Below, in pieces: positions 16,626-21,293 of a stretch of DNA of 64,000 bases (its first letter is position 1; every line of letters starts with the position of its first letter). The position numbers were made by a program, and so were the translations under genes. The notes below the pieces were generated by a model. That model ran no database searches. It worked only from the letters and a program-made list of their open reading frames with translations, and had not been told where the DNA came from. The stretch is taken from the NCBI GenBank assembly GCA_048270185.1, contig JBLWTJ010000003.1, positions 96,001 to 160,000 on the forward strand, read 5' to 3'. The stretch is from Bacteriovoracaceae bacterium. Lineage in GTDB: Bacteria > Bdellovibrionota > Bacteriovoracia > Bacteriovoracales > Bacteriovoracaceae.

Positions 16626-17603
16626 ATGATTAGGGGTTTGGCCTTGGAGAAACTTAAAGATATTAACTGGAATCACCTTTATTGCTTCTATGAAGTTGCC
16701 AAGGTGCAGTCTTTGAAAAAAGGCGCACAAATTATTGGAACTTCGTCTCCAACTCTGAGTGAACAATTAAAGAGACTTGAAAATAAATTCAATATGAAGC
16801 TTTTTCATCGTAGTTCTAAGGGATTAAGTCTTACACCTGAGGGAACACTTCTCTTTGAAAAAACCAAAGGTATATTTGAAGAGGGAAGTAAGCTCCTTGA
16901 GCACTTTTCTGAGGATGTTGTAGGAGGTTATCCTGTCTCTATTGGCATAGAGGAGACGATCTCTCACGACTTGGCCACAGAGTTTGCCTCTCAGTATTGG
17001 GACCTATACACAAAGTACGGAACAGTTAATACTATTCGCCAAAGTGATCACGATATTCTCATTGATAATCTCTTGCGTGGAAATATTGACTGGGGAATTT
17101 CACTAAGAAAACCTAAGAGGAAGTCTCTTGAAGTAGCAGAGATCGGTTCATTTGAAATTGTCTTTTGTTGCTCAGAAGAGTTATTTAATAAATTTAAAGA
17201 CGTAAAAGATCTACTTGTTAATATTCCATTTGCAGAAAGTAATTGGGATAAAACTCTCAACAAGGTTATCTTTCAACACTTAAGAAAGAATGGTGTTGTT
17301 CCAAAAGAGAAGATCTACAGCGACCATATCGATTTTGTTCATAAACTCTGTGCTCGTGGACGTTGTGTCATGTTTCTGCCACGAAATCCACTAGAGGGCT
17401 ATGAGGGTATTAAAACTTTTCAATTAGATGAGCCACTAAAAATGTCTCTCTATGCTATTTGGAAGAAGTCTGATGAAGGACTTATTTCAATTCGTAAGTT
17501 ACAAGAGCTGTTTCAGACAAAATTATCGAATGTTCCAAAGCGCTATGAAGATGTGGACCTTCAAATTGAAGTTTCAGATGTTTCTGAAGATCTACTGCGT
17601 TAG
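16626..17603 (+). CDS. LysR-family transcriptional regulator
   Basis: NWNHLYCFYEVAK...SPTLSEQLKRLE...LFHR...LTPEG HTH. Start may be TTG 16644. Confidence 0.92.
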   Translation: MIRGLALEKLKDINWNHLYCFYEVAKVQSLKKGAQIIGTSSPTLSEQLKRLENKFNMKLFHRSSKGLSLTPEGTLLFEKTKGIFEEGSKLLEHFSEDVVGGYPVSIGIEETISHDLATEFASQYWDLYTKYGTVNTIRQSDHDILIDNLLRGNIDWGISLRKPKRKSLEVAEIGSFEIVFCCSEELFNKFKDVKDLLVNIPFAESNWDKTLNKVIFQHLRKNGVVPKEKIYSDHIDFVHKLCARGRCVMFLPRNPLEGYEGIKTFQLDEPLKMSLYAIWKKSDEGLISIRKLQELFQTKLSNVPKRYEDVDLQIEVSDVSEDLLR

Positions 17604-17671
17604 GACTCATTAAATTCTATTGGTAAAAAAGTTCGAGACATTTAAAACATTATCTTGCTAGAATCTGCTCG

Positions 17672-17959
17672 ATGTTAAGATTATTTAAGTATCTATTCAT
17701 TGCAATTTTCTTTGTTGCCTTTCTGGGGATTACAACTCACTCCCATGACGATGTTCATGAAAATGAGCGTATCCACCAAGCATGTACACTGTGTCTTCAT
17801 GTTACTCACACAATTGCCCTCGATGGACTTGATTCTCAAGATAGTGAGCTAGCAGATATTGACCTGCTCTATAATCAATTACCGTCAATATTCGTTTCTC
17901 CAATAATTTCTTCTCAGATTAATTTTTCATGCCGTAGTCGCGCACCTCCTGTTGTTTAA
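17672..17959 (+). CDS. DUF2946/CruR-like leader protein (TM, His-rich, CxxC, C-terminal RAPP)
   Basis: N-terminal TM helix, HSHDDVH, CTLC, ends SRAPPVV. Upstream of metal-uptake genes. Confidence 0.8.
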   Translation: MLRLFKYLFIAIFFVAFLGITTHSHDDVHENERIHQACTLCLHVTHTIALDGLDSQDSELADIDLLYNQLPSIFVSPIISSQINFSCRSRAPPVV

Positions 17960-18013
17960 TTAATTATTTTATTTTCTATTTTTAAATTTTAATTAATTAA
18001 CAAAGAGGTTACT

Positions 18014-19090
18014 TTGAAAAACTTTTTATATATTTCTATTTTATTACTTAACGCGCAAGTTTTTGCACAATCACTATCAAAAAACTCAAGAGGAAGCAGC
18101 TTCAATCCGGCCATCGGTCTAAATGCTCTTACTCTTTATAAGAACTCTAGCCGTGACAATCACGAAGATGGATTTCAACTTCAAGAAGCTGAACTTCAAT
18201 TTAGTGCGGATGTCGATGCTTACTTTAGAGCTGAGGCAACAATTGGAATTCACAAAGAGCATCATGAGGACGATGCAGCTGAAGAAGAGCATGGGTATGT
18301 TGTTGAACCTGAAGAGATCTTTGTTGAGACAATTTCAATTCCAGCAGTAACGATTAAGGCCGGGAAATTCTATACACAATTTGGAAAGTACAATATGGTT
18401 CACACTCATGCTCAACCATTTATTTACCGTGGTGTTGTTCAAGAGTATATGTTTGGACACGAAGGTCTTTCTGAAGTAGGTGTAAGTTTATCTTACCTCG
18501 CACCACTTCCATGGTTTAGCGATATCACTGTTCAAGTCCTACAGCCTACAAACGAAGAGTTATTTGAAGAGTGTCATCACTGTATTGCAACTGTTGCTAA
18601 TGTGAAGAATCTTTGGGATCTGTCTGACTCACTGACGTTAGAGTGGGGACTTTCTGGATTATATGCAGATAATGAAAATCATGATTCAGGACTTGATGAA
18701 AAAGTAACTGTTCTTGGCTCAGACCTTACATTCAAATGGCGACCAGTTAAAAATGGTAAAGACGCTTCTTTTATTTGGTCAACAGAGTTCATCCATAGAA
18801 ATCTTGAAGGAACTAAGGATGAGAAAAATGGTGGTGTTTCATCATTTATTCGCTACCAGCTATCTCAACGTTGGTATGCATCGGCCCAGTATGAATTCCT
18901 AGGTCTTGGAAAGGATGAGAATTTAGCAGATCAAAATGTTTACACAGGAGCACTATCTTTTGTTCCAACTGAGTTTTCAGCAGTTAGACTCCAGTATGAC
19001 CAGATTCATGATGGTGAAGAAAGAGAAGAGAGAAGAGTTTCAATGCAATTAAGCTTTAGCATTGGTGCTCACCCTGCACACGTTTACTAG
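18014..19090 (+). CDS. Outer-membrane metal (Zn) uptake porin/receptor-like protein
   Basis: Signal peptide, FNPAIG, His/Glu-rich loop HKEHHEDD, HTH, C-terminal IGAHPAHVY. Confidence 0.78.
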   Translation: MKNFLYISILLLNAQVFAQSLSKNSRGSSFNPAIGLNALTLYKNSSRDNHEDGFQLQEAELQFSADVDAYFRAEATIGIHKEHHEDDAAEEEHGYVVEPEEIFVETISIPAVTIKAGKFYTQFGKYNMVHTHAQPFIYRGVVQEYMFGHEGLSEVGVSLSYLAPLPWFSDITVQVLQPTNEELFEECHHCIATVANVKNLWDLSDSLTLEWGLSGLYADNENHDSGLDEKVTVLGSDLTFKWRPVKNGKDASFIWSTEFIHRNLEGTKDEKNGGVSSFIRYQLSQRWYASAQYEFLGLGKDENLADQNVYTGALSFVPTEFSAVRLQYDQIHDGEEREERRVSMQLSFSIGAHPAHVY

Positions 19091-19099
19091 GAGTATTAT

Positions 19100-19975
19100 A
19101 TGAAGTTACTAATAAGCTTATTAGTAAGTTTTAATATTTTTGCTTCGTTAAATGTTGTGACAACGACTTCTAATTTGGCCGCTGTTGCCAAAGAAATTGG
19201 GGGAGATAAGATTGATATTATCTCCCTTGCTAAAGGAAGTCAGGACCCACATTTTCTTGAAGCAAAACCAAGTTATACTTTTAAAGTAGCTAGGGCTGAT
19301 TTACTTATTAGTGTTGGCGCTGAATTAGAGATTGGTTGGCTTCCTCTTATTGTGAGAGGAAGTCGTAATCCTAAGTTAAGAGAGGGGAATATTGGTCGCC
19401 TTGTTGTCGCTGATAATATCGAACTAATTAAAGAGCATTCTGGTCCAATTTCACGTGCTCAAGGTGATGTTCACCCCGAGGGAAATCCTCACTTAATGCT
19501 TGGGCCTTCAAATAGTATCAAGGTTGCAAAGTTGATCCTTGATCGCTTTAGTAAACTTGATGCAGAAAATACTAAGTTCTACCAAGATCGCTTTGAAAGT
19601 TTTTCTAAGCGAATGAATAATCTCATCCTTGAGCTGAGAAAGAGTATTGTGGAAGGTAAGAAAATAATTACTTATCATCGAACACTGACTTACTTTCTTG
19701 CTGAGTTTGGTGTGAATACCTTGGAAGTCCTTGAACCAAAGCCAGGTATACCTCCGACAGCATCACATATTATCAATGTTATTAATATTGTTAAAACAAA
19801 TAAGCTTGATCGTATCATTGTTGAGAATTACTTTGATACTAGTGTTGCTCATCGAGTAAAGAAATCTGTCCCATCGATTAAAATTTTCAGTGTTCCTGTT
19901 GCCGTTAATGGCGATAAGGAGTCTGGTGATATCTTTAAGCTTTATCGCCAGATTGCAAAGGCATTGGTGAAGTAG
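19100..19975 (+). CDS. Metal ABC transporter substrate-binding protein (ZnuA/TroA family)
   Basis: QDPHF, GDVHPEGNPH, TYH, EPKPGIPP. Confidence 0.92.
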   Translation: MKLLISLLVSFNIFASLNVVTTTSNLAAVAKEIGGDKIDIISLAKGSQDPHFLEAKPSYTFKVARADLLISVGAELEIGWLPLIVRGSRNPKLREGNIGRLVVADNIELIKEHSGPISRAQGDVHPEGNPHLMLGPSNSIKVAKLILDRFSKLDAENTKFYQDRFESFSKRMNNLILELRKSIVEGKKIITYHRTLTYFLAEFGVNTLEVLEPKPGIPPTASHIINVINIVKTNKLDRIIVENYFDTSVAHRVKKSVPSIKIFSVPVAVNGDKESGDIFKLYRQIAKALVK

Positions 19976-20781
19976 TGGAAGTTCTAAGTTTCTTGGCCGC
20001 ACCATTTGTTATGTGTCTGATACTGGTAGGGATTCACTGCTATCTAGGACTTCACGTACTTAAAAGGGGAGTGATCTTTGTTGATCTCTCCCTGGCCCAA
20101 GTGGCCAGTCTTGGTTCCACTGTTGCCTTACTCTTTCACTTAGATCATCACAGTCCTCTTAATTACTTTATCTCATTAGGATTTACTTTCTGTGCGGCCG
20201 CTTACTTTGCATGGTCAAAGAAGTATGAAAAGTATATTTCACAAGAAGTCTTAATTGCTCTTGTTTATGCTTTTGCTTCTTCTGCTGTTATTTTAGTTGT
20301 TAATATGATGGCCCACGGGGCAGAGCATATTAAAGAAATTCTTATTGGAAAAATTCTTTGGGTAAGTTGGTCAGATGTTTTTAAAACAGGGGCCATCTAT
20401 AGTATTGTGGCCTTACTCCACTATATTTTTCGCAAACAATTATTTGCCGCGACTCATGAAGAGAAAGGTCAATCGGCCTTTTGGGATTTTCTCTTCTTTG
20501 CACTTTTTGGAGTTGTTATCACTTCATCTGTAGGAATTGCAGGGATTCTTCTCGTTTTCTCTTTCTTAGTTGTGCCAGCATTACTGAGCACCTTGATGAT
20601 GAAGACAATCAAGTCTCAGCTTCTTCTTGGTTGGGCAATAGGAAGTATACTCTCGCTCTTTGGAATGGCCTTAAGTTACTTCTTAGACCTTCCAGCTGGA
20701 GCTATTATTGTGGTGGTCTTCACTTGTGTTCCACTTATCAGTGTTCCATTCTTAATTAAGTTTAAAATAAGCCGTACCTAA
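19975..20781 (+). CDS. Metal ABC transporter permease (ZnuB family)
   Basis: GLHVLKRGVIFVDLSLAQ, GILLVFSFLVVPA, DLPAGA; multiple TM segments. Confidence 0.9.
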   Translation: MEVLSFLAAPFVMCLILVGIHCYLGLHVLKRGVIFVDLSLAQVASLGSTVALLFHLDHHSPLNYFISLGFTFCAAAYFAWSKKYEKYISQEVLIALVYAFASSAVILVVNMMAHGAEHIKEILIGKILWVSWSDVFKTGAIYSIVALLHYIFRKQLFAATHEEKGQSAFWDFLFFALFGVVITSSVGIAGILLVFSFLVVPALLSTLMMKTIKSQLLLGWAIGSILSLFGMALSYFLDLPAGAIIVVVFTCVPLISVPFLIKFKISRT

Positions 20782-20873
20782 TGGGTGCGGTAATTTTTTA
20801 GCTTTTTCTTTAGTTTACTATTTCACTTATCTGTTCGATGCGCCTGTTAAATATTTTAACAATCGGAGGAAAG

Positions 20874-21293
20874 ATGAAATTTATTATCCTAATGGTTTTC
20901 TTTATCACAACGGCATTTGCTTCAAAGGATTTAGGTGTTGTAACTGGAATTAGTATTACAGGTGAGATGGTCAGTTGTAAGAGTGATTCGACACCACAGT
21001 TTTGTACCATGGAGATTCAAATTGGTGATCTCTACGCTTATGAATGTCGTCAAAGAGGCCTAAAGGCACATCAATGTGCATGTCACGAATTTATCTGTTT
21101 AGAGGATGTTCAAGAAGAACAGATCTTTATTGGTGTTGATATCAATGGTGATGTCAGAGGTTGTTACGCCATGGACAAGAGAGTCAAGTGTAGTGAGGTT
21201 TTCGATTCGAATGATTTCTTTGCAGCTAATTGTCGAGAAGAAGGAAATGTGGCCATTCAATGTGGATGTCACGACTATATTTGTGTCAAATAA
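20874..21293 (+). CDS. Secreted Cys-rich protein with two tandem 6-Cys repeats
   Basis: GGAGG RBS, signal peptide, duplicated C..C..CR..G..A.QC.CH..IC module. Confidence 0.75.
   Translation: MKFIILMVFFITTAFASKDLGVVTGISITGEMVSCKSDSTPQFCTMEIQIGDLYAYECRQRGLKAHQCACHEFICLEDVQEEQIFIGVDINGDVRGCYAMDKRVKCSEVFDSNDFFAANCREEGNVAIQCGCHDYICVK

Follow-up and report, generated by a model that had tools for sequence, protein, structure and literature searches.

Within a 64,000-nucleotide (nt) stretch of the genome of a Bacteriovoracaceae bacterium (GenBank assembly GCA_048270185.1, contig JBLWTJ010000003.1, positions 96,001 to 160,000; here called the window), we identified a 95-codon leader open reading frame (ORF) ahead of genes for an outer-membrane porin, a ZnuA-type binding protein, and an ABC-3 permease. 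The ORF encodes a real, conserved leader of the arrest type; it is predicted to work like CruR and CutF, leaders of an already known class, but scores below the cut-off for formal membership of DUF2946. In our favored model, to which we assign a probability of about 0.5, the leader sets translation of this zinc-type import operon through a hairpin over the porin Shine-Dalgarno (SD) sequence, and metal releases the arrest. The model builds on the anatomy, conservation, and rarity of the leader, on a predicted hairpin compared with controls, and on the homology of the operon to a Zur-regulated operon, all of which we observe.

Leader anatomy and rarity

The leader has a hydrophobic N-terminus (13-residue Kyte-Doolittle maximum of 2.7 in the first 21 residues), compatible on hydropathy with a signal peptide or a transmembrane (TM) anchor. 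This is followed by His residues at positions 23, 25, 29, and 35, a CxxC motif (C38-T-L-C41), and the motif R90-A-P-P93, after which two Val codons and the stop codon place RAPP 2 residues from the C-terminal end. A spacer of 54 nt with 6 G+C (17960-18013) leads to the porin. These data agree in large part with an initial annotation of the window, which had described a TM helix, a His-rich stretch, CTLC, a terminal RAPP, and an AT-rich spacer before a TTG-start outer-membrane protein gene. The hydrophobic segment could also be a signal peptide, RAPP is near-terminal rather than terminal, and the feature, which had been drawn as 17672..18016, ends at 17959, 18016 being the last base of the porin TTG.

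Table 1. Features of the leader locus and operon, with positions in the window
Feature	Positions	Strand	Basis
Sigma-70-like promoter: -35 GAGACA, 18 nt, extended -10 TG-n-TAGAAT	17635..17664	+	Sequence match; ends 7 nt before leader ATG
Leader ORF, 95 residues: export signal or TM helix, His/Cys site, RAPP arrest motif	17672..17959	+	Sequence, homologues
Putative His2Cys2 metal site (H23, H25, C38, C41)	17738..17794	+	Conserved columns in leader alignment
Codons for RAPP; stalling predicted at P92 (P site) and P93 (A site)	17939..17950	+	Sequence; register by analogy with CruR, ApdA, and ApdP (PMC12992588, PMC10951233)
Predicted hairpin: Pro-Pro-Val-Val-stop codons and AU arm against porin SD region	17944..18009	+	Minimum free energy -16.5 kcal/mol, z -2.65
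His-rich outer-membrane porin, 358 residues, ~16 strands, without TonB plug	18014..19090	+	AlphaFold2 pLDDT 90; Foldseek top matches are general porins
Cluster A-I (ZnuA-type) binding protein	19100..19975	+	PF01297, E 2e-43
ABC-3 (ZnuB/PsaC-fold) permease with shortened coupling-helix segment	19975..20781	+	PF00950, E 1e-23
Terminator-like stem-loop with T-rich tail, probable operon end	20771..20801	+	Consensus match

In the source genome (3.35 Mb, 95.9% complete), this leader is the only ORF of 50-260 residues whose last 19 residues include R[AG]PP; the motif occurs once in the 2,675 long ORFs (986,913 residues). The sole long protein with an internal RGPP is encoded at C1:1430221-1434081 and has the motif at residue 736 of 1,286. 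The RAPP motif of CruR, the leader Bp2923 of Bordetella pertussis, arrests translation in vitro (PMC12992588), and the variants RSPP, RDPP, RxPP, and HxPP are described as permitting arrest. The leader very probably stalls the ribosome.

The only Pfam family matched by the leader is DUF2946 (PF11162; 16.3 bits, E = 0.018), below the gathering cut-off of 23.7 bits; among 41 leader homologues, 14 match this family at E<=0.05 (best 4.9e-05). No NCBIfam model matched the leader or the porin. A single-sequence search with the leader returned only itself, a search with a profile of 41 leaders returned four proteins, and a scan of genome contigs returned one locus. Because the leaders are too divergent for word-based searches and are often uncalled as genes, homologues were located via the porin. 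ESM Atlas neighbors, which we treat as leads only, were unnamed Bacteroidota clusters (0.94) and, as the nearest named families, DUF2946 (0.92) and DUF2607 (0.91). DUF2607 corresponds to Vibrio ZrgD, which is encoded at the end of the Zur-regulated zrg zinc operon and listed as of unknown function in Table 1 of PMC9817125. It is possibly a related leader; the V. campbellii record yielded only a sub-threshold DUF2607 match containing stops.

Conservation across Bdellovibrionota and beyond

Porin matches were present in 72 of 401 genomes of the phylum and gave 74 orthologous loci after omission of one duplicate and one contig-edge match; the close homologues belong to Halobacteriovorax and Bacteriovorax. 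An R[AG]PP leader precedes the porin at 43 of these loci (23 RAPP and 20 RGPP) and a variant leader at 9, while 22 have none (2 of these are cut short). Metagenomes provided 80 loci, of which 73 were unique and 17 too short, leaving 56 informative loci (3 loci duplicated genome loci); here, we found 37 R[AG]PP leaders, 10 variants, and 9 loci without a leader. CxxC occurs in 35 of the 43 R[AG]PP leaders, and in all 35 the distance from CxxC to the Arg is 43-48 residues. It is 48 residues in the leader described here and 45 in CruR, which tolerated an increase of 2 residues but not of 5 (PMC9426467). The comparison with CruR made in the initial annotation is supported by motif order, by this similar spacing, by the first position in the operon, and by the presence of a leader at 52 of the 74 loci.

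The 41 aligned leaders share ~20% identity. R90, P92, and P93 are invariant by construction, as R[AG]PP was the criterion for including a leader. In columns outside this selection, two His columns are each occupied in 40 of 41 leaders, C38 in 38, and C41 in 36, with the His residues spaced as HxH in 14 leaders and as HxxH or HxxxH in 27. In Sulfurovum mangrovi (L177:1343-1699), a His/CxxC leader ending in HAPP stands ahead of the same porin-binding protein-permease operon, which carries the leader design into Campylobacterota. The conserved His and Cys columns suggest that the leader is likely to sense a metal, with a site that is cytoplasmic or periplasmic.

Two groups of leaders depart from this pattern. 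In one (L053, L063, L068, L071, L073, L080, and L082; also L139, L143, and L146), the leaders end in P-x-L-x-P-x-(R/K)(K/R)PP and contain an E-x-x-H-I-H motif and one Cys that lies 44-46 residues upstream. They match no Pfam family, and most lack an SD hairpin; their ending may be an undescribed arrest motif with a different output. At L080 and L082, neither a binding protein nor a permease gene follows the porin. In the other group (L148, L153, and L161), HxH and CxC, the latter replacing CxxC, precede R[AS]PP; ~270 nt separate these leaders from the aligned porin start downstream.

Predicted hairpin over the porin Shine-Dalgarno sequence

The porin SD (AAAGAGG, 18002-18008) lies ahead of the TTG start at 18014. 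In the predicted fold, which was equalled by 2 of 200 shuffles, the stretch between the Ala-Pro-Pro codons and the porin start forms one stem, with 17944-17948 opposite GAGGU (18005-18009) and the Val-Val-stop codons opposite the 3' arm of the spacer. To model a stalled ribosome, we blocked the mRNA as far as 15 nt from the P-site Pro; at this locus, the mask ends at the stop codon. With the mask, the energy for opening the porin ribosome-binding site fell from 12.4 to 4.5 kcal/mol, a drop of 7.9 kcal/mol. Over 42 leaders, the median drop was 3.1 kcal/mol and 24 had at least 2 kcal/mol. In 205 co-directional gene pairs of the source genome, the median was 0.0, with at least 2 kcal/mol in 16 pairs, at least 4 in 2, and 7.9 in none. 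Similarly, at least four bases of the SD region were paired to the leader at 31 of 42 loci vs 25 of 205 control pairs.

As further controls, we recoded the leaders synonymously and swapped them between loci, omitting one near-duplicate and one mis-started locus. No more than 5% of synonymous recodings (uniform codon choice) matched the native value at 19 of 40 loci, and no more than 5% of leader swaps did so at 17 of 40; the native value of the source locus was reached by 3% of recodings and 5% of swaps. A metagenome replicate with GC-weighted codons gave 15 of 33 loci. The hairpin arms sit in differing registers across species. A search of 17400-18200 identified no intrinsic terminator, and attenuation by such a terminator was rejected on this basis. 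The leader is highly likely to control the downstream genes, and the hairpin is probably the main output.

Promoter and operon borders

A promoter-like site immediately before the leader ATG marks the leader as the operon's first gene. Upstream lies a LysR gene that ends 68 nt earlier, and close relatives have a different gene there. The promoter hexamers recur, with a variable spacer, in four homologues of the same genus; that the hexamers but not the spacer are conserved speaks against a conserved operator. The leader ATG has no SD ahead of it and, judged from this arrangement, the leader mRNA is probably leaderless. A strict test of leaderless geometry was passed by 12 leaders out of 42, by none of 50 porin starts, and by 183 of 2,668 first starts in the source genome. 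The geometry is clear in close relatives of the source locus; as a universal trait of the leaders, it was rejected, given the 12 of 42. Past the terminator-like site, 20838-21293 encode a secreted-looking, Cys-rich protein of 151 residues, the two halves of which resemble each other; it matches no family.

Downstream operon

The initial annotation had placed the leader ahead of an outer-membrane porin and ABC (ATP-binding cassette) components. The porin stands; the ABC part consists of a binding protein and a permease, and the operon has no ATPase gene behind the permease. TonB-dependent receptors have a 22-strand barrel with a plug; the plug-less ~16-strand AlphaFold2 model and the general porins among the top Foldseek matches argue against a receptor of this type.

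The ZnuA-type binding protein is the sole match of its kind in the source genome. Its residues H51, H125, H131, and H193 are kept in at least 117 of 119 homologues. Compared to PsaA, it has a His at the position of the PsaA Glu and lacks the PsaA Asp, both of which are metal ligands in PsaA.

Searching the same strand with one regular expression, we found no Walker-A ATPase ORF downstream of the permease at any of 26 genome loci or 29 metagenome loci in which the whole permease plus ~1.6-1.8 kb past it was visible. In the source genome, the best AztA-profile score was 102 bits vs 174 bits for the true operon ATPase of a distant relative. The permease model superimposes on PsaC (VIA Z 25.1, root mean square deviation of 3.6 A over 257 residues) with a 6-residue gap at the coupling helix, as defined for ZnuB in PMC12236471; the model has a loop there. 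In 69 permeases, the linker is 15-18 residues long in 50 and 20-22 in 13, with 6 unmeasured. The full 22-residue linker is kept in 75 of 101 measurable distant representatives, and at two distant loci an AztA-like ATPase is present and the full coupling segment is kept. Loss of the coupling helix throughout the permease subfamily was therefore rejected; the loss is lineage-limited. Conserved permease residues, including intramembrane His/Asp/Glu, are H21, H27, D37, E91, H114, E117, H118, H149, and D171. From these sequence features, ATP-independent, binding-protein-dependent metal import is plausible; the permease might also borrow an ATPase encoded elsewhere. Many distant permeases of the subfamily (P0127-P0267) have C-terminal extensions, often HEAT repeats.

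Evidence bearing on the metal

The porin is homologous to a V. campbellii "zinc-regulated TonB-dependent receptor" (Omr; hhalign 99.9%, E 4e-33), and the other two operon proteins match its neighbors (BLASTP 28%, E 6e-44, and 31%, E 3e-26). The V. campbellii operon has a perfect Zur-type box, no leader, and no ATPase gene. In V. parahaemolyticus, omr-znuA2-znuB2 (VP_RS21430-21420) is part of the Zur regulon and was upregulated 283-1034-fold under Zn limitation (PMC9817125); our protein comparison used V. campbellii, which the same paper states has the same cluster. The V. parahaemolyticus binding protein (Vpa1307) supports growth in TPEN in one strain (PMC3794297).

Using the Zur box described for Desulfovibrio, ATGCAACnnnGTTGCAT (PMC545781), we found sites within 3 mismatches in 5 of 32 leader-less relatives vs 1 of 93 leader promoters, and within 4 mismatches in 7 of 7 paralogous operons vs 11 of 93 leader promoters. 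In 17400-18030 of the window, the best match to the Vibrio-type box had 3 mismatches and that to the Desulfovibrio-type box had 5, in agreement with the initial annotation, which saw no obvious Zur box. The leader-less paralogous operons (loci L169-L175; genomes G004, G021, G001, G025, G008, and G015) have a TGCAA-N5-TTGCA palindrome resembling the Desulfovibrio box and, in order, genes for two exported proteins (one His-rich), a porin, a binding protein, a short ATPase, a permease, and a Fur-family protein. The adjacent Fur-family gene was present in 5 of the 7 that we fetched from Bdellovibrionota, and these operons are a candidate Zur regulon of the phylum.

No match to Fur-family (PF01475), ZIP, or NRAMP genes was found in the 95.9% complete source genome, and a Fur match is likewise absent from 13 of 24 other genomes of the family. 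The leader may stand in for Zur in the source genome. Such a replacement would be local; strict mutual exclusion of the leader and Fur/Zur was rejected, as 57 of 79 genomes searched have Fur-family genes.

Because of the Vibrio homology, the Zur-type boxes, the lack of Fur, ZIP, and NRAMP matches, and the binding-protein His in place of Glu without the Asp, zinc is favored and, given that the leader senses metal, is probably the metal in question. The earlier suggestion of Zn, Ni, or Co is thereby narrowed toward Zn.

Proposed switch and alternative readings

In the proposed switch, a probably constitutive promoter would give a leaderless mRNA encoding the 95-codon cis-acting arrest leader. 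A ribosome stalled at RAPP would cover the Pro-Pro-Val-Val-stop codons and free the porin SD, allowing translation of the porin and the tightly coupled downstream genes. In the stalled complex, C41 would be 51 residues from the P-site Pro, which is about where a nascent chain leaves the ribosome tunnel. Plentiful metal would bind H23, H25, C38, and C41 just outside the exit tunnel, and metal-induced folding or export would pull the chain and release the stall. The hairpin would then re-form and translation would cease, possibly reinforced by Rho. Since stalling would open the SD and an uptake operon is wanted in starvation, metal should release the stall.

Several observations weigh against this model. 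No leader was found at 22 of the 74 orthologous loci (2 of them cut short), and 8 of the 43 R[AG]PP leaders have a single Cys. The hairpin effect is below 2 kcal/mol in 18 of 42 leaders, and (R/K)KPP variants mostly lack it; structure prediction is weak for AU-rich RNA, the choice of porin starts was automatic, and kinship among the loci makes the counts non-independent. With respect to zinc, 25 of the 32 leader-less loci are at least 5 mismatches from the Desulfovibrio-type box, NCBIfam does not assign the adjacent Fur-family proteins to Zur, most leader-bearing genomes outside the family are among those with Fur-family genes, and the source genome has an MntR/DtxR-like gene elsewhere (C1:1536970). 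Deletion of the Vibrio binding protein caused no growth defect in a second strain (PMC9817125). The characterized relatives CruR and CutF sense copper, and the reported effect of Zn on the CruR target was only moderate.

The same switch might sense copper, making the leader a true CruR equivalent and the operon one that imports or responds to Cu. The sole Pfam match is DUF2946, and both characterized members sense Cu via CxxC or CxxxC. However, the cargo is homologous to a Zur-regulated cluster induced by Zn starvation, no CruR-type copper neighbors were seen in the operon, and the site is His-rich and Met-poor (138 His, 82 Cys, and 8 Met in the sensing regions of the 41 leaders). We consider this reading unlikely. 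A metal-sensing arrest leader with Rho-dependent termination as its main output and the hairpin secondary is improbable to a similar degree: the spacer is 54 nt vs 162 nt in CruR, and the native hairpin beats the synonymous (3%) and swap (5%) controls. The genome does have a Rho gene, C outnumbers G in the 3' half of the leader (78-nt windows with 18 vs 8 and 17 vs 9), and 18 of 42 homologues show no strong hairpin effect. The skew is not specific, because the 5' end of the porin gene also has C>G; based on Rho and the skew, a CruR-type terminator may add to or replace the hairpin.

There is a slim chance that Mn, Co, Ni, Fe, or several metals are sensed instead of zinc. The closest solved binding proteins are of the PsaA/MntC types, His-only CutF-like proteins precede Ni/Co genes (10.1101/2022.11.11.516240), and the operon is the sole cluster A-I system found in the genome; against this stand the His that replaces the PsaA Glu, the missing PsaA Asp, and the Zur-type boxes in leader-less relatives. 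We give little weight to a SecM-like monitor of export or disulfide state, in which Sec pulling or Cys oxidation would release the arrest and tie the porin to envelope capacity. An export signal combined with RAPP is the design of ApdA, ApdP, and SecM (PMC10951233), and RAPP leaders are also found ahead of DsbA and thioredoxin genes, but the conserved His pair and Cys at a fixed distance, the metal-specific cargo, and the lack of a sec or yidC gene do not fit. A small periplasmic metal chaperone without a regulatory role, or an incidental RAPP, is very unlikely: the leader looks exported and is His/Cys-rich, and CutF was at first conjectured to be a chaperone (PMC9426467), but at ~20% identity the C-terminal motif keeps its position, the proteome has almost no R[AG]PP, and pairing with the SD of the next gene is predicted at the codon level.

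Returning to the metal-released arrest leader, we regard as doubtful its boldest form, in which a leaderless, RAPP-stalling leader would sense zinc directly via its His2Cys2 site and be the first post-transcriptional zinc switch of its kind. In predators without Fur/Zur, it would be the sole zinc regulator of an ATPase-independent importer, composed of a porin, a binding protein, and an ABC-fold permease from which the helix for ATPase docking has been lost.

Comparison with known systems

Metal sensing via ribosome-stalling leaders has so far been shown for copper only (CruR and CutF), and no riboswitch for Cu or Zn is described according to the CruR paper (PMC9426467). The known class limits the surprise of the finding. 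Surveys of CutF-like proteins report that not all such leaders are Cu-specific (10.1101/2022.11.11.516240), and published source data list leader/operon pairs of this kind with no comment on them. Our literature search, which had most subscription journals outside its scope, returned no paper in which either a zinc-sensing RAPP leader or a ZnuA/ZnuB permease lacking an ATPase was tested. The supplement text available for PMC9426467 and PMC9973294 gave no match for ZnuA or Bdellovibrio; the neighbor table of PMC9973294 may bear on novelty. With a 95-residue peptide, a 54-nt spacer, and one hairpin, the locus is a compact zinc candidate, and it points to a binding-protein-dependent metal importer that possibly works without its own ATPase.

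As described in PMC9426467, CruR is likewise the first gene of an uptake operon, has an export signal, CxxC, and a near-terminal RAPP, and precedes a gene for an outer-membrane protein; the predicted polarity is also equal, with metal releasing the arrest and shutting down uptake. The two differ in that the present leader is under the DUF2946 cut-off and from a host in Bdellovibrionota, and in cargo (porin, ZnuA-type binding protein, and permease here; TonB-dependent transporter and PepSY protein there). In addition, a predicted SD hairpin stands in place of the Rho terminator shown for CruR, the mRNA is apparently leaderless whereas that of cruR has a 45-nt 5' untranslated region, and the probable metal is Zn rather than Cu.

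The predicted SD-occluding hairpin is CutF/SecM-like. The initial annotation had not recognized this likely output, nor the leaderless start or the lack of an ATPase gene. CutF of Rhodobacter capsulatus is also a small exported leader, at which a stalled ribosome melts a stem-loop over the next SD (10.1101/2022.11.11.516240; 10.1101/2025.02.05.636593), a step that is only predicted here. CutF has CxxxC and PPP, is sensitive to elongation factor P, and precedes a multicopper oxidase, in contrast to CxxC and RAPP before a porin. It stalls with Cu present and controls a detoxifying oxidase; because the cargo here serves uptake, the polarity should be the reverse of that of CutF. If the model is correct, the locus would thus join the polarity of CruR to the output of CutF. 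ApdA, ApdP, and SecM share RAPP or RGPP near the C-terminus of a small exported protein (PMC10951233, PMC12992588) but precede sec/yidC genes, while the leader described here has a His/Cys site and precedes metal uptake genes.

With canonical ZnuABC and PsaBCA, the operon shares the folds of the binding protein and the permease; it differs in lacking an ATPase gene and six coupling-helix residues, in its extra intramembrane His/Asp/Glu, and in its dedicated porin. Vibrio omr-znuA2-znuB2 has three homologous genes in the same order, no ATPase gene, and a short permease linker (PMC9817125, PMC3794297), with Zur boxes and no leader, whereas the operon described here has a leader and no box or Fur-family match. 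The two offer a natural comparison of the same operon under Zur boxes in Vibrio and under a leader here.

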